Assembly: GCA_044220955.1 (NCBI GenBank)
Contig: JBGAQA010000003.1
Coordinates: 108,749-120,960, forward strand
DNA from: Sandaracinaceae bacterium
Lineage (GTDB): Bacteria; Myxococcota_A; Polyangia; Polyangiales; Sandaracinaceae
DNA: 12,212 nucleotides
Reading direction: 5' to 3'
Shown here in pieces: positions 409-12,212 of the stretch; the first letter of the stretch is position 1, and each line of letters begins with the position of its first letter. The position numbers and the translations under genes were made by a program. The notes under the pieces are model-generated. The model did no database searches, was not told where the DNA came from, and saw nothing but the letters and a program-made list of their open reading frames with translations.

Positions 409-1856
409 GTGCTGCGATCTCACCCGTTCCTCATCATCGCGCCTGCGCTCCTCGCGCTCGCACCGCTCTCGCTGGCGTCGGCGCAGCCGCGGCGAATCCA
501 GCTTCCGGACGAGGACGAGACGGGCGTCGGCGGTGGCACCCCCGTGCAGGCGGACGAGGCGCCCCCGTCCCCGGAGGACCAAGCACCGCCGGAGGGGCCG
601 CCGCCGTCCTCGGGGCCGCCGCCGTCCTCGGGGCCGCCGCCGCGCGTGGCGGTGGTGTCGGTCGCGGCCGACGACTCGCTCGAGGCCTATGCCCAGCGCG
701 CCGGCGCGGCCGCCCGCCACGAGCTACGCACGCTGGCGACGGTCGACTGGGCGGCGGCCGATCAGCTCTTCCTCGGCTACGACGCCTCCGCGCTGCAGAC
801 GATCGAGCGCGCTCGGGAGCGCCTCGAGCAGGGGCGTCAGGCCTACCTCAACCTGGATCTGGGTCAGGCGATCGAGCTGCTCTCGGGCGCCGTGGCCGAC
901 TTCGACGCCACGGCGGCGGCGCTCGAAGACCCGGAGGATCTCGGTCAGGCGCTGCTCTTCCTCGGCGCCTCCTACGCCTTCAACGGCCAGCAGCGCGATG
1001 CCACGCGCGTGTTCACGCGCCTTCACGTGCAGATGCCGCACATCGTGCCCGATCCGAACGTGTTCCCGCCGGACGTGACCTCGCGCTTCGACGCCGCTCG
1101 TCCGCGCGACGCGGCCAGCCCCGCGGGCTCGATCTCGATCGAGAGCGACCCCCCGGGCGCGATCGCGTACGTCGACTTCGTCGCACGGGGCGCCACGCCG
1201 CTCACCGTGACGGGGCTCATCGGCGGCGAGCACATCGTCCGCGTCACGCGTGCCGGCGCCACGCCGAGCGTGAGCTCGGTCACCGTTCGGGCCCGCGGCA
1301 GCGAGTCGACGAGCGCCTTCCTCGTGGACGACGCGAGGACCAGCGGTCTGCACGAGGCGATCGCCGCCATCCGTGACTCGGACATGGCGTCGGCGCCGGC
1401 CGGCTCGCCCGTCAGGCAGGTCGCCGAGATCCTCGACGTCGAGCGCATCGCCGTCATCCGCGTGTCGAGCGCCGAGACCGAAGGGTCGGTCGGGATCGAG
1501 CTGCTGGTCTACGACGTCGCGAGCGGGCACCGCCTCCTGCGCGGCTCGGGCACCGCACCGACGGGGATCGGCCAGCTCGAGTCCGCCGTGCACCAGGTCG
1601 TGTCGGGCGCGCTCGAGACGGCGTTCACCTCCCGCCCCCAGGTCGCGGTCGAGCCGCCGCCGCCCGTCGACGACGAGAGCCCGCTGCTGCCCCCTCCGCC
1701 TCCGCCCAGCCACTCGATCGTCGAAGAGTGGTGGTTCTGGACCATCATCGGCGGTGTGGTGGTGGTCGGAGTCGCGGTCGGCGTCGGCGTCGGCGTCGGC
1801 TCGCAGGGCTCGACCGTCGGGCAGTCGCCGAGCGGCGTCGTGGTCCTGGAGTTCTG

Positions 1857-1857
<1 letters not shown>
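409..1857 (+). CDS. Secreted/membrane-anchored PEGA-domain protein with TPR-like helices (paralog 1)
   Basis: Signal peptide (..[12 protein letters not shown]); Pro-rich linker; helical TPR-like region ([33 protein letters not shown]); PEGA signature [38 protein letters not shown]-terminal EEWWFWT plus Gly/Val hydrophobic segment. Confidence 0.85.
595..642 (+). repeat. 18-bp tandem repeat (GGGCCGCCGCCGTCCTCG, about 2.7 copies) encoding GPPPSS
   Basis: Directly visible and in frame within the Pro-rich linker of CDS 409-1857. Confidence 0.85.
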
Positions 1858-3119
<1,262 letters not shown>

Positions 3120-4268: not shown

Positions 4269-4288
4269 GAGGCCTTCCGAACGGCCTC
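4269..4288. terminator. Short hairpin between convergent genes (GAGGCC-N8-GGCCTC)
   Basis: 6-bp inverted repeat in the 21-nt gap between two stops; no U-tract. Confidence 0.3.
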
Positions 4289-4943
4289 AGGTGCAGTGCA
4301 TCGTGCCGTCGCACGTGCCCGACATGCAGTCGGCGTTCACTCCGCACGCCGCGCCAGCGGCGCACGTGCGGCCCATGCCGACGCAGTCCGCACCGCCGCA
4401 GTCGATGGCAGTCTCGGTGCCGTCCAGGATGCCATTCGTGCAGCTCGGCCCGGCGTCGCTTCCGGCGTCGCTCCCGGCGTCGCTCCCGGCGTCGTCGCCG
4501 GCGTCGTTGCCCGCGTCGCTTCCCGCGTCCATGCCCGCGTCCATGCCTGCGTCGCTTCCGGCATCGCTTCCGGCGTCGCTTCCGGCGTCGTTGCCTGCGT
4601 CCATGCCTGCGTCGTTGCCGGCATCCACGCCGGTGTCGGGCAGGACCGCGGCGTCGCGGCCGGCGTCTCCGATCGTCGCGGCGTCGTTGCCCGCGTCGCC
4701 GCTGCCCATGTCCGGCAGGTTCGCGTCGGGCAGGTTCGCATCGACGTTCGCGTCGCTCCCGGCATCACGCCCCGCGTCGGAGCCGCCGTCTCCCGGCCCG
4801 ACGTCCACGCCCACGCCGGTGTCGGCGCTGATCCGCGATCGATCGAAATGGACGAAGAGCTCGCAGCCCGCGGCGAGGGGGGCCGCCAGGACTGCGATCG
4901 CGAGGACCGGGAGCGCGCGGACGAACGGACGGTGAGTGGCCAT
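4287..4943 (-). CDS. Lipoprotein with Asp-Ala-Gly repeat stalk and C-terminal Cys-rich domain, 218 aa
   Basis: Likely start ATG 4943: MATHRPFVRALPVLAIAVLAAPLAAG-C lipobox; DAGx repeats; terminal 8-Cys module CTNGILDGTETAIDCGGADC...C..C..C..C..C resembling myxobacterial Cys-rich repeats. Confidence 0.82.
   Translation of the reverse strand: MATHRPFVRALPVLAIAVLAAPLAAGCELFVHFDRSRISADTGVGVDVGPGDGGSDAGRDAGSDANVDANLPDANLPDMGSGDAGNDAATIGDAGRDAAVLPDTGVDAGNDAGMDAGNDAGSDAGSDAGSDAGMDAGMDAGSDAGNDAGDDAGSDAGSDAGSDAGPSCTNGILDGTETAIDCGGADCVGMGRTCAAGAACGVNADCMSGTCDGTMHCT
4446..4625 (-). repeat. 15 tandem 12-bp units encoding D-A-G-[S/N/M/D/P]
   Basis: Counted from the translation (DAGN DAGM DAGN DAGS...DAGP). 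More degenerate units (DANLP x2, DAGR, DTGV) continue to about 4825. Confidence 0.92.
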
Positions 4944-4951
4944 CGGGTCAG

Positions 4952-4981
4952 AGGCTACCGATCCTGGGGCCCTTTCGCCAA
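4952..4981 (-). promoter_or_regulatory. Putative sigma70 promoter TTGGCG-N18-TAGCCT for the DAG lipoprotein
   Basis: Minus strand reads TTGGCG (4981-4976), 18 nt, TAGCCT (4957-4952), 8 nt, ATG 4943; no SD. Confidence 0.5.
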
Positions 4982-5004
4982 GACCCTGCACGTGAAATCG
5001 GCCT

Positions 5005-6423
5005 TCACACCATCTCGAGGAACAGCGACTCGGGATTTTCGAGGAATCCGATGATGTCGTAGGCGAACGCCGCCCCGACGTGCCCGTCCACGATGCGATG
5101 GTCGAAAGAGAGCGAGAGCAGCATGACCTCGCCGATCACGATCTGGTCGTCCCGGACCACGGGCTTCTTCTTGATCTGGTGCACGCCGAGGATCCCGACC
5201 TCGGGGAAGTTCAAGATCGGCGTGGCGAAGAGGCCGCCCTGGGAGCCGAGCGACGTGATCGTGAAGGTCGAGCCTGCGAGGTCCGCCGAGGCGATCGCCC
5301 CCGCCTTCGCGGCGGTCCCGAGGCGGTCGATCTCTCGCGCGATGTCGAGGATCGACTTGCGGTCGGCGTCCTTCACCACGGGGACCATGAGCCCCTGATC
5401 CGTCGAGGCGGCGATGCCGACGTGGAAGTACTTGCGCGTCACCAGCTCGTTCGTGCTCTCGTCGAGAGCGCTGTTCAGCACGGGGTGCTTCTTAAGCGCG
5501 GCGACGACGGCGCGCACGATGAACGGCAGGAACGTGAGCTTCACGCCCGCGGCCTCGGCGGCGGGCTTGAGCTTGTTGCGCAAGTCCTTCAAGCGGCCGA
5601 CGTCGCACTCCTCGACGAAGGTGAAGTGCGCGGCCGTGTTCTTCGCCGTCTGCATCCGCTCGGCGATCTTCCGGCGCACGCCCACGAAGGGCTTGCGCAC
5701 CTCGAGCTCGCCCTCGCGGGGTGCGGTGCCCGCGGGGACCTGGACCGTCATCGGAGCGCGGCCGCCGACGCCAGGGGCGATGCCGAGGGCGGGCCCCGGA
5801 CCCCCGACCGGCCGGTGCGCCTTCGTGGCCGCCCCGCCGACGAACGCCCGCACGTCCTCGGCCGTGACGCGGTTCCCGTCTCCGGTCGGTCGCACGCGAC
5901 GCAGGTCCACGTCGAGATCGCGCGCGAGCTTGCGCGTCGCGGGCGTGGCCAGCGGGCGCTCGGAGAAGTGATCGCCCCCCGGCGACGCGGCCCGGGCGGG
6001 GGTCCCGTTGGCCGGGGGTGCGACCTCCTTCGCGCCGAAGAACGCGGCGCCGGGCAGCGTGTCCTTGATGTCTCCGACCGCCGTGGCCGCGGGGCCCTCG
6101 GCGCTCTTCGGAGCGGCCTTGGCCGCGGGCCGTGCGGCCGCGGGCGCCGCCTTCGTCGTCGTCGGCGCGGCAGCCACGGCGCTGTCCGTCTCGATGACGA
6201 CGAGCAGCGCGCCGACCGGCATGATCTGTCCGACCGTCGCGTGCGTCTCGAGGATCGTCCCCTTCTTCGGCGCTCCGATCGTGACCGTCGCCTTGTCGGT
6301 CATCACCTCGACCATGGGCTGGTCTTCCTTGACGACGTCTCCGCCCTTCACGTGCCACGCGACGATCTCGCCCTCGGCGACGCCCTCGCCGATGTCCGGC
6401 AGCTTGAATTCGAATCGAGCCAT
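5005..6423 (-). CDS. Dihydrolipoamide acyltransferase E2 of a 2-oxoacid dehydrogenase complex (probably branched-chain type)
   Basis: Single lipoyl domain (EVMTDKAT); Ala/Pro linker; peripheral-subunit-binding domain (ATPATRKLARDLDVDL..GDGNRVTAEDV); catalytic DHRIVDG; GAGG SD upstream. Confidence 0.96.
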   Translation of the reverse strand: MARFEFKLPDIGEGVAEGEIVAWHVKGGDVVKEDQPMVEVMTDKATVTIGAPKKGTILETHATVGQIMPVGALLVVIETDSAVAAAPTTTKAAPAAARPAAKAAPKSAEGPAATAVGDIKDTLPGAAFFGAKEVAPPANGTPARAASPGGDHFSERPLATPATRKLARDLDVDLRRVRPTGDGNRVTAEDVRAFVGGAATKAHRPVGGPGPALGIAPGVGGRAPMTVQVPAGTAPREGELEVRKPFVGVRRKIAERMQTAKNTAAHFTFVEECDVGRLKDLRNKLKPAAEAAGVKLTFLPFIVRAVVAALKKHPVLNSALDESTNELVTRKYFHVGIAASTDQGLMVPVVKDADRKSILDIAREIDRLGTAAKAGAIASADLAGSTFTITSLGSQGGLFATPILNFPEVGILGVHQIKKKPVVRDDQIVIGEVMLLSLSFDHRIVDGHVGAAFAYDIIGFLENPESLFLEMV

Positions 6424-6432
6424 GGGTGCCTC

Positions 6433-7422
6433 TCAGTACTTGCCGATCTCGAGCAGCTTCGGCGCGATGCGGTGCGCGAGCGGGAGGTAGTCGTTCTCCA
6501 GCGTGTACGGGAACGGCGTGTCCCAGCCGGTGACGCGGGTCGGCGGCGCCTGGAAGTGGAGGAACGACTTCTCCGTCACCAGCTGGAGCACCTCGGCACC
6601 GAAGCCGCACGCCTTGGGCGCCTCGTGCACGACGACGATGCGCCCCGTCTTCTCGACGCTCCGGACGATGACGTCGAGGTCGAGCGGCCAGAGCGTGCGC
6701 GGGTCGATCACCTCGCACTCGACGCCCTGCTCGGCGACCTGCTCGGCGGCGGAGAGCGCCTCGTAGAGCATCGCGCCCCACGCGACGACGGTGACGTGCT
6801 CGCCCTCGCGGACGACCTTTCCGACGCCGAGCGGCGTCGTGTACGCCTCGTCCGGCACGTCCATCTTCACGGCGCGGTAGACGCGCTTGGGCTCGAAGAA
6901 GAGGACCGGATCGTCGTCCTGGATCGCCGACGCGAGCAGGCCCTTGGCGTCGTGCGGGTTGCTCGGGCAGACGACCTTGAGGCCGGCGGTGTGGATGAAG
7001 AGCGCCTCGGGCGACTGCGAGTGGTACGCGCCGCCCCGGATGCCGCCGCCCACGGGGCTGCGGATCACCATCGGACACTGGTACTCGCCGCCGGAGCGGT
7101 AGCGGAACTTGGCGGCCTCGCTGACGATCTGATCGAAGGCCGGGAAGATGAAGTCCGCGAACTGGATCTCCGGCACGGGCCGCATTCCGTAGGCGGCCAT
7201 GCCGATCGCAGCGCCGATGATGCCGCCCTCGTTCAGCGGCGTGTCGATCACGCGGTCGTCGCCGAACTCGTCCCAGAGGCCGGCCGTCACACGGAACACG
7301 CCGCCGACCTTGCCCACGTCTTCGCCGAGGATCACCACGCGATCGTCGCGCAGCATCTCGAGCCGCAGCGCCTCGTTGATCGCCTGGACCATGTTCTTCT
7401 GGGAGGAAGCCTTCTGAGTCAT
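6433..7422 (-). CDS. 2-oxoacid dehydrogenase E1 beta subunit (branched-chain/pyruvate family)
   Basis: Start ATG 7422 overlaps the E1alpha stop (ATGA). Motifs GEDVGKVGGVFRVT, DTPLNEGGIIG, EIQFADFIFPAFDQI, YRSGG, HSQSPEA and VKKTG-like VEKTGR..VHEA are intact. Confidence 0.96.
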   Translation of the reverse strand: MTQKASSQKNMVQAINEALRLEMLRDDRVVILGEDVGKVGGVFRVTAGLWDEFGDDRVIDTPLNEGGIIGAAIGMAAYGMRPVPEIQFADFIFPAFDQIVSEAAKFRYRSGGEYQCPMVIRSPVGGGIRGGAYHSQSPEALFIHTAGLKVVCPSNPHDAKGLLASAIQDDDPVLFFEPKRVYRAVKMDVPDEAYTTPLGVGKVVREGEHVTVVAWGAMLYEALSAAEQVAEQGVECEVIDPRTLWPLDLDVIVRSVEKTGRIVVVHEAPKACGFGAEVLQLVTEKSFLHFQAPPTRVTGWDTPFPYTLENDYLPLAHRIAPKLLEIGKY

Positions 7423-8333
7423 GCCTCGTGGACCTTCCGCAGCTCGTCGCGCTGCCGGATCAGGTGCGGACCGAGCTCCGCGGTGACGTGGTCGAAGATC
7501 GAGTCGAGCGCCGGGGGTCCGGCGTCGATCGCGGCGCAGATCGCCGCCTCGATGCCGGCCATGACGTCGCGCCGGTGCTGCATGTCGGCGCTCTCGTCGA
7601 ACGCACCCTCGGCGAGGAGCCTCGCGCGAACCTGCGCGAGCGGATCGTGCTCGAGCGAGATCCGCGCCTCGACGATCGTCGGACCCTCGCCGCGCCGCGC
7701 CCGCTCGCACGCCTCGCGGACGGCCTCGAGCACGTGCGTGGGATCGCCCGAGACGTCGACTCCCGCGACGCCGTACGCGATGCCCTTGTCCGCGACCTCG
7801 ACGTCGGGCGCGGGCGCCTCGCTCCCGTCGGTGCGGACCAAGAACACGATCGGAGCTCGGGTCGCGCCGGCGAAATTCACGGCGGAGTGGAAGTCGCCCG
7901 CGTCGGCCGCGGTCTCGGGCAGCAGCGCGAGCACGCAGGAAGGGTCCTTCCGCAGCCGCGCCGCCCACGCGATCCCCATCGCCTGGGTGAGGTGCTGCGA
8001 GAGCTGGCCCGTCGGCGGCGCGATCTTCTTCGCGCGCGAGCAGAAGCAGCCGGGTGAGGCATGCCCCGAGAGCGGGTCGCTCGCGCCGCCGATCACGTGC
8101 GCGAGGTAGGTGCTCACCTCGACGCCTCGCACGAGCGCCGCCGCGTGGTCGCGCGCCGTCGGGACCACCCAGTCGGTGTCCCCGAGCGCGAGCGTCGCGG
8201 CCGCGATCACGGTCTCGGCCCGCTGCGAGTCGGGGTGCAGCCCGATCCGTCCTCCGCGCGCGAGCACGTCCAGCCGCTCGTCGACGAGGCGCGCAGAGAG
8301 AGCGTGGCGGTAGATGGAGAGGAGCTCGCTCAT
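7419..8333 (-). CDS. Divergent 2-oxoacid dehydrogenase E1 alpha-like protein, probably catalytically inactive, 304 aa
   Basis: Start ATG 8333 with GGAG SD. E1alpha scaffold is recognisable (LARGGRIG, DWVVPTARD, GDFHSAVNFA...APIVF, KGIAYG, ARRGEGPTIVEA, DPL), but GDG, NN and the TYR..HS..DD..YR loop are absent. Confidence 0.88.
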   Translation of the reverse strand: MSELLSIYRHALSARLVDERLDVLARGGRIGLHPDSQRAETVIAAATLALGDTDWVVPTARDHAAALVRGVEVSTYLAHVIGGASDPLSGHASPGCFCSRAKKIAPPTGQLSQHLTQAMGIAWAARLRKDPSCVLALLPETAADAGDFHSAVNFAGATRAPIVFLVRTDGSEAPAPDVEVADKGIAYGVAGVDVSGDPTHVLEAVREACERARRGEGPTIVEARISLEHDPLAQVRARLLAEGAFDESADMQHRRDVMAGIEAAICAAIDAGPPALDSIFDHVTAELGPHLIRQRDELRKVHEA

Positions 8334-8450
8334 CGACGGGGCTCCTATATCACGACGGGCCGTGGGGCCAGCGCCAGCGGGGTGAGCGTCCGCGCGGCCG
8401 TGACGCGCTGCGATCGACCCGGCCGGGAGATAGCGTGCTAACCCCGGGGC

Positions 8451-8870
8451 GTGACCGCGTACCCGCACCCGACCGCGTTCATGCCGCATCGGCCGCCCAT
8501 GCTGCTGATCGACGCGCTCGTCGCACACACGGACGACGCGTGTACGTGCGTCAAGACGTTCCGCGCGGGCGATCCGCTGGTCGAGGGCGCGGGTGTGAGC
8601 GCGCTCGTGGTGATCGAGCTCTTCGCCCAGACGGCGGCCGCCCACTTCGGGTACGCGGGGCTGATCCGTGGCGGCCCGATGGCCTCGGGCGCGCTGCTCG
8701 GGACGCGCCGGATCGACCTCGTGCACGGGGCGCTGCCCCTCGGCGAGGCGATCACGATCGAGGTCAGGCGCGTGATGGCGATCCCGCCGATGGCGCAGTT
8801 CGAGTGCGAGGCGACGCTGGGCGGGCGCGTGATCGCCTCGGGCACGATCAACGTGGCGATGGGAGGATGA
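8451..8870 (+). CDS. Hotdog-fold 3-hydroxyacyl-ACP dehydratase-like protein (FabZ/ApeP-like)
   Basis: PHRPPMLLID and IELFAQTAAA motifs, G-x-LLG-x-R segment, 139 aa, directly upstream of fabG. Confidence 0.85.
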   Translation: MTAYPHPTAFMPHRPPMLLIDALVAHTDDACTCVKTFRAGDPLVEGAGVSALVVIELFAQTAAAHFGYAGLIRGGPMASGALLGTRRIDLVHGALPLGEAITIEVRRVMAIPPMAQFECEATLGGRVIASGTINVAMGG

Positions 8871-8874
8871 CGCC

Positions 8875-9630
8875 GTGCCGAAGATCCTGAGCGAGAAGCC
8901 GCGCGCACTGATCACCGGCGCCAGCCGCGGCATCGGCGCCGCCGTCGCCAAGAAGCTCGCGGCCGACGGCTATCCGGTGATCGTCCACTACCAGTCGCGC
9001 GAGGAGGCGGCGCAGAAGGTGAAGGCGGAGATCGAGGCCGCCGGCGGCACGGTCGAGCTCGTGCGCTTCGACGTCGCCGACCACGAGGCCTCGCAGGCGG
9101 CCATCGCGATGCTGCTCCAGGGCGCCCGCCCGATCGGCGTGCTCGTGAACAACGCCGGCGTCACCGCCGACGCGCCCTTCCCGGCGATGGACTGGCAGAT
9201 GTGGCGCAAGGTCGTCGCGACGAGCCTCGACGGCTTCTACAACGTCACCCAGCCTCTCTCGATGCCGATGATCAAGCTGCGCTGGGGCCGCATCGTGAAC
9301 CTCACGAGCGTCAGCGGCGTGATCGGCAACCGCGGCCAGGTGAACTACTCGGCGGCGAAGGCCGGCCTCATCGGCGCGACGAAGGCCCTCGCGCAGGAGA
9401 TGGCCAAGCGCAACGTCACGGTGAACGCCGTCGCCCCGGGGCCCGTCGAGACCGACATGTTCCAGGGTGCGATCGCCAACGGCACGCCGCTCGAGGAGGT
9501 GCTCAAGCACATCCCCATGCGGCGCATCGCGACGGTCGACGACGTCGCCGCGGTCGTCGCGTTCCTCTGCAGCGACGCCGCGGGCTACGTCACGGGTCAG
9601 GTGATCGGCGTCAACGGCGGGATGTGCTGA
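8875..9630 (+). CDS. fabG: 3-oxoacyl-ACP reductase (SDR), resembling aryl-polyene cluster ketoreductases
   Basis: TGASRGIG, NNAG, S..YSAAK catalytic motif, VNAVAPG, GQVIGVNGG; GGAGG SD before the GTG start. Confidence 0.93.
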   Translation: MPKILSEKPRALITGASRGIGAAVAKKLAADGYPVIVHYQSREEAAQKVKAEIEAAGGTVELVRFDVADHEASQAAIAMLLQGARPIGVLVNNAGVTADAPFPAMDWQMWRKVVATSLDGFYNVTQPLSMPMIKLRWGRIVNLTSVSGVIGNRGQVNYSAAKAGLIGATKALAQEMAKRNVTVNAVAPGPVETDMFQGAIANGTPLEEVLKHIPMRRIATVDDVAAVVAFLCSDAAGYVTGQVIGVNGGMC

Positions 9631-10070
9631 GGCCCCGCGCGCTCGCGATCGCCGCGGTGATCCTGGCGTTCGTCCTCGGGGCCCTGCTCTGGCGTGCCGG
9701 CGGTCGGCCTGTCGGGCACGAGCGCGAGGCCGAGGGCGAGGGCGAGAGCGAGGGCGAGAGCGAGGGCGAGAGCGAGCGCGAGGGCGAGAGCGAGCGCGAG
9801 GGCGAGCGCGAGGGCGAGAGCGAGAGCGAGAGCGAGCGCGAGAGCGAGCGGGTCGCGCCCGCTGCGCAGATCCAGCTCACGCCGGGCGCCATCACCGAGG
9901 CGCGCATGGCGGAGATCCGCCGCGACGTCCACCTCCTCGAGATCCAGCGCCTCGACGCGCGCGAGCGGGGCGACCACGAGGTCGAGGCCCGCCTCGATGC
10001 GGAGATCCGCGCGGCCCGCGCCGAGCACGACCGCCTCCGCGACACGCTCGGCGCCCCCGAGGGGATCTGA
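9624..10070 (+). CDS. Small membrane-anchored hypothetical protein with Glu-X repeat and C-terminal helical/coiled-coil region, about 148 aa
   Basis: GTG 9624 overlaps the fabG end; hydrophobic ALAIAAVILAFVLGALLW; (E-x)22; charged helical tail. The portion of ORF 9201-10070 upstream of 9624 is fabG shadow. Confidence 0.62.
   Translation: MLRPRALAIAAVILAFVLGALLWRAGGRPVGHEREAEGEGESEGESEGESEREGESEREGEREGESESESERESERVAPAAQIQLTPGAITEARMAEIRRDVHLLEIQRLDARERGDHEVEARLDAEIRAARAEHDRLRDTLGAPEGI
9720..9851 (+). repeat. 22 tandem hexamers, mostly GAG(A/G/C)GC, encoding ER/EG/ES dipeptides
   Basis: Directly visible gagggcgagagcgagcgc... run of 132 bp. Confidence 0.92.
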
Positions 10071-10163: not shown

Positions 10164-11579
10164 TCAGGCGAGCAGGCCTGCGACGCAGGCCGTCATGTAG
10201 GTCGAGAGCAGCCCGCCGAGCATCGCGCGCATGCCGAGCTTGGCGAGATCCTTGCGCCGCTCGGGCGCCATCGCGCCGATGCCGCCGAGCTGGATCGCGA
10301 TCGAGCTGAAGTTCGCGAACCCGCAGAGCGCGTACGACGTGATCACGGTCGCGCGGTGGCTCATCGGGTGCGCGCTGCCGAGGTTCTCCGCGAGCGAGAT
10401 GTATCCGACGAACTCGTTGAGGACGAGGCGCTCGCCGAGGATCTCCGACACGGTCTGGCAGTCCTCGATCGGCACGCCCATGACGAAGGGCATCGGCCAG
10501 CCGATCACGCCCAGGATGCGCTGCATCGTGAAGGGCTCCCAGGCGACGAAGTGCGAAGAGAGCGTCCGGTTCGCGTCGTGGATGCACGTGACGAGCGCGG
10601 GACCGTCGAGCGTGCCGGCGCACGCCTCGGCTGGCTCGTGGCCCGCCGCGCGCAGCGCGGCGAGCGCATCGGCCCACACCGACCGGTCGTGCCAGAGCGA
10701 GGGGAGCGCGAGCAGCGCGTTCAAGAGCGCCACGAGCGCGATGAACGCGAGCAGCATCGCGCCGACGTTCAGCGCGAGCATCAGCCCCTCGCTCGCGCCG
10801 GCGGCCGCGGCGTCGACCACGTTCGCGTGAGGCCGCTCGTCGCTCATCTCGAGCGTGCCGGCCGTCTTCGGCGCCTGCTTCTCGGGCAGGATCACCTTCG
10901 CGAGCACCAGCGAGGCCGGCGCGCTCATCACGCTCGAGGCCATGAGGTGTCCCGCGATGTCGGGGAAGTGCCCCGAGAGGAGCGCGACGTAGGCGGCGAG
11001 CACGCCCCCCGCGGTGTTCGCGAAGCCGCCCACCATCACGGCCATGAGCTCGCTCTCGGTCATGGTGGCGACGAAGGGCTTCACGACGAGCGGCGCTTCC
11101 GTCTGCCCGACGAAGATGTTCGCCGCCGCCGCGAGCGTCTCGGCGCCCGAGGTCCTCATCGTCCGCTGCATGAGCCAGGCGAAGCCGCGCACGACCCTCT
11201 GCATCGCGCCCACGTGATAGAGGACGCTCATCAACGACGAGAAGAAGAGGATCGTCGGCAGCACCTGCAGCGCGAACGCAGGCCGCATCTCGAGGTAGTC
11301 GCCGAAGAGGAACCGGCTGCCCTCCGCCGTGAAGCCGATCAGCGCGGCGATCGCGTCGTTCATCAGGGAGAAGAACGCGAGGCCGAGGCTCGAGCGCAGC
11401 ACGATCACGCCGAACGCCAGCTGTAGCCCCACGCCCCAGAGCACGATGCGGCGCGGAAACGCCTTGCGGTCGTAGCTCATCGCCCACGCCAGGCCGATCA
11501 TCACGCAGAGCCCGAGCGCCGACATGCCGCGCTGCCAGAGCGGGACGTCTTCGGGGGTCAGCGCGCCGAGATCGTGCAC
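10164..11579 (-). CDS. NupC/CNT family concentrative nucleoside transporter
   Basis: FALQVLPTILFFSSL, TSGAETL..AANIFVGQTEAPL, ASSVMSAPA, LNEFVGY and YALCGFANFSSIAIQLGG motifs; many transmembrane segments. Confidence 0.96.
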   Translation of the reverse strand: MHDLGALTPEDVPLWQRGMSALGLCVMIGLAWAMSYDRKAFPRRIVLWGVGLQLAFGVIVLRSSLGLAFFSLMNDAIAALIGFTAEGSRFLFGDYLEMRPAFALQVLPTILFFSSLMSVLYHVGAMQRVVRGFAWLMQRTMRTSGAETLAAAANIFVGQTEAPLVVKPFVATMTESELMAVMVGGFANTAGGVLAAYVALLSGHFPDIAGHLMASSVMSAPASLVLAKVILPEKQAPKTAGTLEMSDERPHANVVDAAAAGASEGLMLALNVGAMLLAFIALVALLNALLALPSLWHDRSVWADALAALRAAGHEPAEACAGTLDGPALVTCIHDANRTLSSHFVAWEPFTMQRILGVIGWPMPFVMGVPIEDCQTVSEILGERLVLNEFVGYISLAENLGSAHPMSHRATVITSYALCGFANFSSIAIQLGGIGAMAPERRKDLAKLGMRAMLGGLLSTYMTACVAGLLA

Positions 11580-11594: not shown

Positions 11595-11598
11595 GGAC

Positions 11599-11628
11599 GA
11601 GAACGAGAGCGAGAGCGAGAGCGGGAGC
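11599..11628 (+). repeat. Intergenic hexamer repeat (GAGAAC, GAGAGC x3, GGGAGC)
   Basis: Directly visible between the GH31 stop and the nupC start. Confidence 0.8.
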
Positions 11629-11639
11629 GGTCCACCCGC

Positions 11640-12212
11640 TCAGCGCAGCACGACCGTGATGGCGCGATCCGTCGCGCCGCCCGTGATCGTGAGCATGGCG
11701 GTCCCGTCGATCACCAGCGTGCCCGTGCCCACGACGGAGATCGTGCCGCCCGTGATCGGCACGCTCGTCCCGTTCCACGTCGCGCTCGCGGCTGCGCCGC
11801 TCCAGCCCGTCGCGCGCCAGGCGTACGTCAGCGCGCCCTCGGCGAAGTCGGCGCTACCGGCGCCGTAGAGCCAGATCTCGCGATCGTCGCGCACGCTCGC
11901 GAGCGTGACGCGCGTCGAGGTCGCCGCCACGGCGCGCACCGTCTCGACCTCGGGCGGGAGCGCGACGATCATCGACCCCTCCGGCACGAACGCGGGGATC
12001 TCGGTGACCGGCGCGGCCACGCTGATCGCCGCGCCCGTCGAGGCGATCGCCGCGCCGCCCAAGAGCGGGCGGTACGTGCCCGGCGGGAGCGTGACCATGC
12101 GCGACGTCGCGCCCTCGGTGACCACCGGCGCCACGTAGATCGCGGGACCGAGCTGGTACTCGTCGGTCATCGACCAGCCCGGCTCGAAGCCCGGGTGGTC
12201 GTACGCGAGCGG
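11640..12212 (-). CDS. Glycoside hydrolase family 31 protein (alpha-glucosidase/xylosidase-like), 3' part
   Basis: Frame is open to the window edge: PLAYDHPGFEPGWSMTDEYQLGPAIYVAPVVTEGATSRMVTLPPGTY...APVTEIPAFVPEGS, matching the GH31 C-terminal pattern (RPL..D..D.qy.lG..llVAPV...r.vyLP.G.W...P.F.r.Gs). Confidence 0.85.
   Translation of the reverse strand, partial: PLAYDHPGFEPGWSMTDEYQLGPAIYVAPVVTEGATSRMVTLPPGTYRPLLGGAAIASTGAAISVAAPVTEIPAFVPEGSMIVALPPEVETVRAVAATSTRVTLASVRDDREIWLYGAGSADFAEGALTYAWRATGWSGAAASATWNGTSVPITGGTISVVGTGTLVIDGTAMLTITGGATDRAITVVLR

Follow-up and report, generated by a model that had tools for sequence, protein, structure and literature searches.

Can an E1-alpha subunit that has lost its catalytic parts still belong to a working 2-oxoacid dehydrogenase complex? 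The E1 component of such complexes is, in the textbooks, a symmetric alpha2beta2 enzyme. The question is raised by a 12,212-nt stretch of a Sandaracinaceae genome (Myxococcota; assembly GCA_044220955.1, contig JBGAQA010000003.1, positions 108,749 to 120,960), here called the window, in which a degenerate E1-alpha gene, alpha1', heads an otherwise canonical operon for E1-beta and the acyltransferase E2. A first-pass annotation had taken alpha1' for an intact but apparently catalytically dead subunit and had raised the idea of an asymmetric tetramer with an active alpha encoded elsewhere. We find that alpha1' belongs to a conserved lineage under purifying selection and that the genome encodes an intact paralogue, alpha2. 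Judging from these sequences, alpha1' has, by a modest balance of probability, a non-catalytic role in an asymmetric E1 of branched-chain type, composed as alpha1'/alpha2/beta2, in which a single site works.

The alpha1' gene and its cofactor site

The features of the operon are as follows.

7419..8333, minus strand: alpha1', a degenerate E1-alpha of 304 aa and candidate pseudoenzyme subunit (PF00676 and TIGR03181 profiles, alignments)
8342..8346, minus strand: Shine-Dalgarno-like AGGAG, 8 nt 5' of the alpha1' ATG (sequence)
7911..7919, minus strand: PET in place of GDG/GEG, both glycines gone, with Glu140 at the acidic Mg-ligand position (alignment)
7869..7898, minus strand: GDFHSAVNFA helix, the most conserved stretch of alpha1' (conservation alignment)
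7827..7835, minus strand: RTD in place of R/Q-N-N; the inner loop behind it is shorter by 6 residues and has lost its thiazolium-contacting Ile (alignment)
7638..7685, minus strand: GPTIVEARISLEHDPL, the outer active-site loop, 23 residues short, the catalytic His deleted (alignment)
6433..7422, minus strand: E1-beta of branched-chain type, 329 aa, with the catalytic Glu and His present and an ATGA overlap coupling it to alpha1' (top solved match the beta chain of Thermus branched-chain 2-oxoacid dehydrogenase (BCKDH), 1um9_B, E 4e-119)
5005..6423, minus strand: E2 acyltransferase, 472 aa, with one lipoyl domain, an E3-binding domain and catalytic DHRIVDG (profile domains)

The alpha1' frame runs without a stop from 8333 to 7419 (304 codons), and its stop codon and the start of beta (7422-6433) share an ATGA overlap. 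The GC content of third codon positions (GC3) is 0.93 in alpha1', 0.96 in beta and 0.93 in E2. Together with the AGGAG, these observations agree with the first-pass description of an intact frame with a ribosome-binding site, GC-rich third positions and coupling to beta. Neither a sigma-70 promoter nor a terminator was found in window 4800-8600. In two sludge metatranscriptomes (word shares 0.10 and 0.05), contigs met beta and E2 in short pieces, mostly less than 90% alike, and none covered alpha1'. Plasmid matches reached only about 30% identity among the best 5 of 403 matches.

The alignment to the E1_dh family that had been proposed for alpha1' identified it as a family member without the catalytic motifs. 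Its score against Pfam E1_dh PF00676 is 110.9 bits (E 7.5e-32; gathering score 22), which places it among the E1-alphas. At 154.7 bits it falls short of the TIGR03181 equivalog profile (PDH_E1_alph_x, cut-off 411 bits), a cut-off that alpha2 (392.9) and the intact alpha1 of another locus, L037 (382.3), just miss too. The top solved-structure match is the Thermus branched-chain E1-alpha (E 4.5e-33). In an AlphaFold model (predicted local distance difference test, pLDDT, 93.5), alpha1' folds as an E1-alpha with the pyrophosphate (PP)-domain fold, and the predicted fold matches Thermus BCKDH alpha with a template-modelling (TM) score of 0.89-0.91 (Foldseek; 0.89 to 1um9_A).

The motif readings PET, TD (7832-7827), GHASPGC (8066-8046) and PTAR (8162-8151, all minus strand) of the first-pass annotation were found as given, and GPTIVEARISLEHDPL ends at 7638, not at about 7641. 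In the alignments P-E-T falls on G-D/E-G and RTD on R/Q-N-N, and the GDG/GEG-x(~26)-NN motif is absent. The outer-loop span from GEGPT to DPL holds 18 residues in alpha1' and 41 in the genome's intact alpha; for the inner-loop span the numbers are 23 and 29. The shortened NN loop and the deleted active-site loop noted earlier are thus real. Alignment to solved chains stops at residue 225 and restarts at 228, skipping the His outer loop (H271 in Geobacillus, H291 in human), and the inner-loop Ile and the equivalent of the thiazole-contacting Tyr are gone as well. The human residue labels at cofactor-contact positions follow the human numbering, transferred through the alignments to solved chains.

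As described in the relevant parts of PMC2663715, D173, N202 and Q200 coordinate Mg, I206 and Y102 contact the thiazolium, and H271 of the outer loop takes part in acyl transfer. In 65 close homologues of alpha1', the acid of GDG (Glu140, at the D173 position) is kept in 58 and Asp169, which stands at the position of the Mg-ligand Asn (N202), in 62; Arg61 is kept in all 65 and Arg/Lys167 in 64, and the second GDG glycine position is Thr in 56. Among the copies sampled from other dead lineages, 21/24 have a gap where the Asn would stand. The earlier claim of a selective loss of cofactor residues therefore stands for the glycines, Tyr, Ile and His; it does not stand for the Mg-ligand positions, which are still acidic, nor for the two Arg. 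We infer strongly that alpha1' does not acylate lipoyl groups but, given these retained acids and Arg residues, not that it has lost all Mg-diphosphate binding. The cofactor site of this lineage appears remodelled, which does not imply that binding is abolished, and the word 'dead' is used here for alpha1' as a reading of its sequence.

The GDFHSAVNFAG helix is nearly invariant, with G146, D147, H149, N153, F154 and G156 identical in 95/95 sequences. Opposite Asp147 in the alignment stands Asp180 of Geobacillus E1p (numbering counted from D173), the residue of the proton wire that is mutated in PDB 1w88. At the E183 position none of alpha1' (where it is Ser), alpha2 and intact alpha1 has an acid, and a complete proton wire is therefore not to be expected in this family.

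The losses are shared by relatives, a point that the first-pass annotation had asked to be checked. Among 120 homologues listed of 176, the His loop is missing in 108 and canonical in 12; the dead copies with a named source belong to Sandaracinaceae, Labilithrix, Polyangiaceae and other Myxococcota, and dead alpha1 was found in 11 families. Of 37 dead-alpha1 loci, 36 are open at full length and one is truncated by a contig end; the copy in genome G025 has a stop near the end of the match. Column-based motif scoring gave 0/3 motifs in 36 of the 37 dead copies and 1/3 in the other. About four or five of 80 loci (L176, L181, L183-L185) keep GDG/GEG but lack NN and the loop, and look like intermediate stages. 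The identical alpha1' protein occurs on 4 contigs.

Selection on alpha1' is relaxed yet strongly purifying. Under maximum-likelihood (ML) Goldman-Yang (GY) and Muse-Gaut (MG) codon models, the ratio dN/dS (omega) of alpha1' is 0.046 (GY) and 0.13 (MG) in 5 genomes of the genus, and 0.049/0.14 (11 genomes) and 0.064/0.19 (7 genomes) in two family subclades. For alpha2 in the same sets it is 0.019-0.029 (GY) and 0.086-0.10 (MG), and for intact alpha1 in 10 genomes 0.021 (GY) and 0.074 (MG); omega of dead alpha1 is thus relaxed about 1.5-3-fold. Pairwise Nei-Gojobori (NG86) values of 0.18-0.49 were put aside because GC3 near 0.93 deflates dS. An omega of 0.04-0.19 confirms the expected dN/dS below 1, and the case that would have overturned the original suggestion, a canonical alpha in close relatives with neutral decay or assembly error here, is not what we found.

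A second alpha and the ancestral operon

The stand-alone intact E1-alpha whose existence had been anticipated was found by tblastn of the genome: alpha2 lies on another contig (G000:C264:15501-16643) and carries GDGATS, QNN and HSSSDD. No beta or E2 is present in its 12 kb locus. Only one E3 of the genome scores above the TIGR01350 cut-off; it is found on the same strand as alpha2, 1.4 kb downstream and past two unrelated open reading frames (ORFs). Orthologues of alpha2 in 29 other loci are 58-91% identical; none has a beta within 1.5 kb, and in many E3 follows directly. All three motifs are present in 59/60 alpha2 loci.

The rest of the complex appears complete. As first described, beta and E2 are catalytically canonical, with NEGG (Glu65) and HSQ (His134) in beta and the lipoyl TDKA and DHRIVDG in E2, and the genome has an E3 to go with this E2 and BCKDH-type beta. 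Since beta and alpha2 both match BCKDH chains best among solved structures, a branched-chain 2-oxoacid is the likely substrate. The intact forms of the two alphas differ at fixed positions: Tyr in alpha1 (49/49) is Leu in alpha2 (59/60), where BCKDH has Tyr113, and Arg is replaced by Gln, which hints at different chemistry.

Relatives show how the two alphas are tied to one beta. A beta orthologue occurs in 97/301 genomes of the phylum, and our non-random sample of 90 genomes consisted of upstream regions of 54 beta-bearing genomes, 6 further relatives and 30 earlier loci. In genomes from outside this taxonomic order, E2 is immediately followed by the second alpha. Five of seven distant operon regions (L239, L240, L243, L246, L247) read alpha1-beta-E2-alpha2-E3, and in the remaining two alpha2 follows E2, the range covered showing no E3. 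Within the five-gene operons alpha1 is intact in L240 and L243 and dead in L239; L246 and L247, whose alpha1 aligns weakly, were left out of motif scoring. This arrangement ties alpha2 to this beta and E2, and favours the asymmetric alpha/alpha'/beta2 idea of the first-pass annotation. The ancestral Myxococcota operon is alpha1-beta-E2-alpha2-E3; in the taxonomic order to which the window's genome belongs it has come apart into alpha1-beta-E2 and alpha2-(E3).

Two intact alphas, about 45-50% identical, occur with one beta, in one operon or split, in L240 (G277), L243 (G322), L241 (G041) and 28 more genomes; a dual-specificity or mixed E1 is possible there. In the near-complete genomes G007 and G023, we counted 4 separate E1-alphas and 3 separate E1-betas; next to each of the other two betas lies an alpha of its own.

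In the alpha tree, alpha1 and alpha2 form separate clades (100/99), with the dead copies inside alpha1. Among the 90 genomes, dead alpha1 occurs with alpha2 in 35 and alone in 2, both alphas are intact in 31, intact alpha1 is the only one in 18, and 4 have no alpha1 before beta. For the 80 genomes at least 90% complete, the corresponding numbers are 27, 0, 31, 18 and 4; alpha2 absence rests on search thresholds and was rechecked by profile in 5 genomes. The beta tree (a quick tree) gives 8 changes for the number of alpha1 deaths, at least 2 of them forced by starred branches. The alpha tree unites all the dead copies that were sampled in a single clade on a long branch (99; 100/98), possibly through long-branch attraction, and rejects the pairing of the dead copy of G040 with the intact one of G317 (p-AU 0.015, approximately unbiased test).

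Further E1 genes were seen in the window's genome. An additional, esg-like alpha/beta pair (L004, G000:C257:92824-94898) lies in an 11 kb locus that lacks an E2, and may share the window's E2. Locus L003 (G000:C52:10167-11783) holds an open acetoin-dehydrogenase-like E1-alpha with a long N-terminal extension that by eye resembles a sterol-carrier domain; the contig ends after this gene. L006 (G000:C267:3431-5884, minus strand) is a fused E1 alpha-beta gene. In other phyla, no tandem or dead copy was found in the 4 kb flanks of Bacillota and Acidobacteriota loci, which have single canonical alphas. In eight records from Acidobacteriota and Sericytochromatia (L188, L189, L191, L194, L195, L196, L198, L216), flanks of up to 4 kb around canonical E1-alphas showed neither beta nor E2, and these are possibly stand-alone alphas.

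Possible roles of alpha1'

With lost catalytic residues, purifying selection and co-occurrence with an active paralogue, alpha1' has the marks of a pseudoenzyme partner. As a structural subunit, alpha1' would bind beta via its conserved core, and would likely be the first alpha to meet beta because the two genes are translationally coupled. The alpha1'-beta half would then pair with an alpha2-beta half. The 2-oxoacid would be decarboxylated at the alpha2 site, which would acylate the window's E2, and E2 would be reoxidised by the E3 encoded near alpha2; lipoyl acylation would be impossible at the alpha1' site. The simplest account of why the dead subunit was kept is that the mixed tetramer became entrenched after duplication, while both alphas were active, possibly with a part in tuning the live site. 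Human BCKDH subunits have no proton-wire communication according to the part of PMC2663715 that deals with them, which makes one live site per tetramer plausible. Complex prediction for alpha2 (36-372) and beta (5-329) with alpha1' as partner scored 0.85 and a control with alpha2 replaced 0.86, which counts neither for nor against the pairing; such a textbook pair might also pass through its resemblance to solved structures.

More broadly, and tentatively enough that it may well prove wrong, these sequences suggest a three-subunit E1 (alpha1/alpha2/beta2) with two different sites, one of which was switched off in many lineages, perhaps up to eight times, the subunit staying on as an obligatory part or an allosteric Mg-diphosphate sensor. 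If true, this would amount to a thiamine enzyme that has a single site by nature, and intermediates of each stage would still be alive: both alphas intact; loop lost with GDG kept; fully dead; alpha1 deleted.

Several observations weigh against a structural subunit in a mixed tetramer. Dead alpha1 stands alone in two genomes, which are 70% and 84% complete. In three genomes counted as having alpha2 (G009, G014, G037), alpha2 is interrupted; in G014 and G037 the E3 beside it is frameshifted too, which suggests assembly errors. Phylogenetically independent contrasts gave 2 and 4 pairs, none opposite, and were not significant (p 0.5-1). No alpha1 was found by profile in G207 (100% complete), G108 and G282 (98%), though beta and alpha2 are present, and alpha2 alone can probably form alpha2/beta tetramers in some lineages; G167, also with no alpha1 before beta, has a further alpha elsewhere. 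Conversely, alpha1 is the only alpha of the pair in 18 genomes, in all of them intact. After the operon split, moreover, the amounts of alpha1' and alpha2 need not match, a situation that fits regulation no less than a fixed stoichiometry.

The strongest competitor, which we nevertheless consider rather unlikely, is a regulator or decoy. Here alpha1' would titrate beta away from alpha2, or inactive alpha1'/beta tetramers would fill the E1/E3-binding domain of E2; the kept residues may sense a Mg-diphosphate (ThDP (thiamine diphosphate), a nucleotide or pyrophosphate, PPi), with activity set by separate alpha2-E3 expression. Consistent with this, alpha2 lacks an alpha1 partner in the three near-complete genomes above, the operon split in this order allows control by ratio, and the Mg/diphosphate positions are kept in 58-65 of 65 close homologues. 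E2 may also be shared, since the C257 alpha/beta pair has none nearby; for the BCKAD (branched-chain keto acid dehydrogenase) of M. xanthus, a separately encoded E2 is named in the pertinent part of PMC4048283. However, dead alpha1 also occurs in the unsplit five-gene operon L239, where independent control is unlikely, and the loss of the Asn/Asp position in other dead lineages indicates that ligand sensing is not the general reason for retention.

Residual or changed catalysis is improbable. In this case the alpha1' site would bind ThDP-Mg and decarboxylate, but could not acylate lipoamide without the His loop, and would release an aldehyde or carry out carboligation. The acids at both Mg-ligand positions and the two retained Arg fit such a site, and counted in its favour is that I206A (and qualitatively H271A) raises decarboxylation in the 2,6-dichlorophenolindophenol (DCPIP) assay while lowering complex activity, in the mutant results of PMC2663715. 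Against it stand the Gly-to-Pro and Gly-to-Thr changes at the start of the diphosphate-binding helix, the loss of Tyr, Ile and both loops, and the relaxed omega; dead lineages have also lost different parts, and their motif regions share no newly invariant residue.

An assembly chaperone, stabilising new beta and then swapped for alpha2 so as to be absent from the mature enzyme, is if anything slightly more improbable still. The ATGA coupling to beta, the intact predicted fold and the distant location of alpha2 would suit this role, but it leaves retention in unsplit operons that co-encode alpha2 unexplained, and the invariant core helix gives no sign of a weakened interface. A decaying pseudogene or assembly error, to which long branches and relaxed omega might point, is scarcely credible and effectively refuted by the shared loop loss (108 of the 120 listed) and low omega (at most 0.19, ML), together with open frames at 36 of 37 loci in 11 families and the same protein on 4 contigs. 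Weighing a structural subunit against a regulator, we place the former just on the probable side and the latter on the unlikely side.

Neighbouring genes, known systems and meaning

The remainder of the window holds genes of other kinds. Divergent from the operon, at 8451-9630 (plus strand), are an ApeP-like dehydratase and a FabG-like reductase (near FlxB/FabG2 profiles), tailoring genes of aryl-polyene or flexirubin type. A 6-bp tandem array of 21.7 copies at 9719-9850 gives an (E-G/E-S/E-R)n low-complexity run on the plus strand, and a shorter array lies at 11598-11629. Downstream of E2, at 4287-4991 (minus), is a putative lipoprotein with DAG-type repeats (array 4450-4625); a second DAG-repeat putative lipoprotein, with a lamin-tail domain, follows alpha2 (L001:6647-7435). 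Two tandem PEGA-domain membrane-anchored proteins occupy 409-3119 (plus). The start of a GlgC-like nucleotidyltransferase (1-300), a CNT/NupC nucleoside transporter (10164-11579) and the C-terminus of a GH31 hydrolase (11640-12212) are all on the minus strand.

Compared with the BCKDH E1 alpha2beta2 of Thermus thermophilus (1um9/1umb), Pseudomonas putida (1qs0) and human (1dtw), the system has the same fold, the same alpha-beta-E2 order, and canonical beta, E2 and alpha2. It differs in having two paralogous alphas for one beta, the operon-leading one without the His loop, motif glycines and Tyr. A dead-paralogue partner is reportedly also found in trypanosomatid S-adenosylmethionine decarboxylase (AdoMetDC), as the prozyme. 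In trypanosomatid deoxyhypusine synthase (DHS), the account in PMC3663545 describes a dead paralogue, DHSp, in a heterotetramer with the active paralogue and a 3000-fold activation. Common to these cases and ours is a duplicated, catalytically dead subunit kept under selection. The folds are unrelated, however, and activation is demonstrated there, whereas for alpha1' both assembly and effect are putative; it would sit in a tetramer of three gene products, and some lineages have lost it altogether. E1 tetramers engineered to be half dead, which bear on the proton-wire or alternating-sites question (Frank 2004 and Li 2007, as cited in PMC2663715), likewise have one working and one non-working ThDP site, and alpha1' keeps the D180 equivalent. 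In contrast to them, the present case is natural and selected, and the E183 equivalent is non-acidic.

Searches of full-text literature, a body of text outside which most subscription papers and supplements lie, turned up neither a two-alpha E1 operon nor a dead E1-alpha described from myxobacteria. The dead alpha1' system is apparently a real, conserved and undescribed variant of the textbook enzyme. For two decades it has been debated whether the two E1 sites have to alternate, as the discussion in PMC2663715 recounts, and a natural tetramer with one disabled site would test this question directly.

The retention of dead paralogues has been studied mostly in simulations and engineered systems. 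The present clade offers an evolutionary series (two intact alphas, one partly degenerate, dead, deleted) in which to weigh neutral entrenchment against regulation. Homologues of alpha1' carry the annotation 'pyruvate dehydrogenase E1 alpha', a label that misleads metabolic models of Sandaracinaceae and Polyangiaceae.

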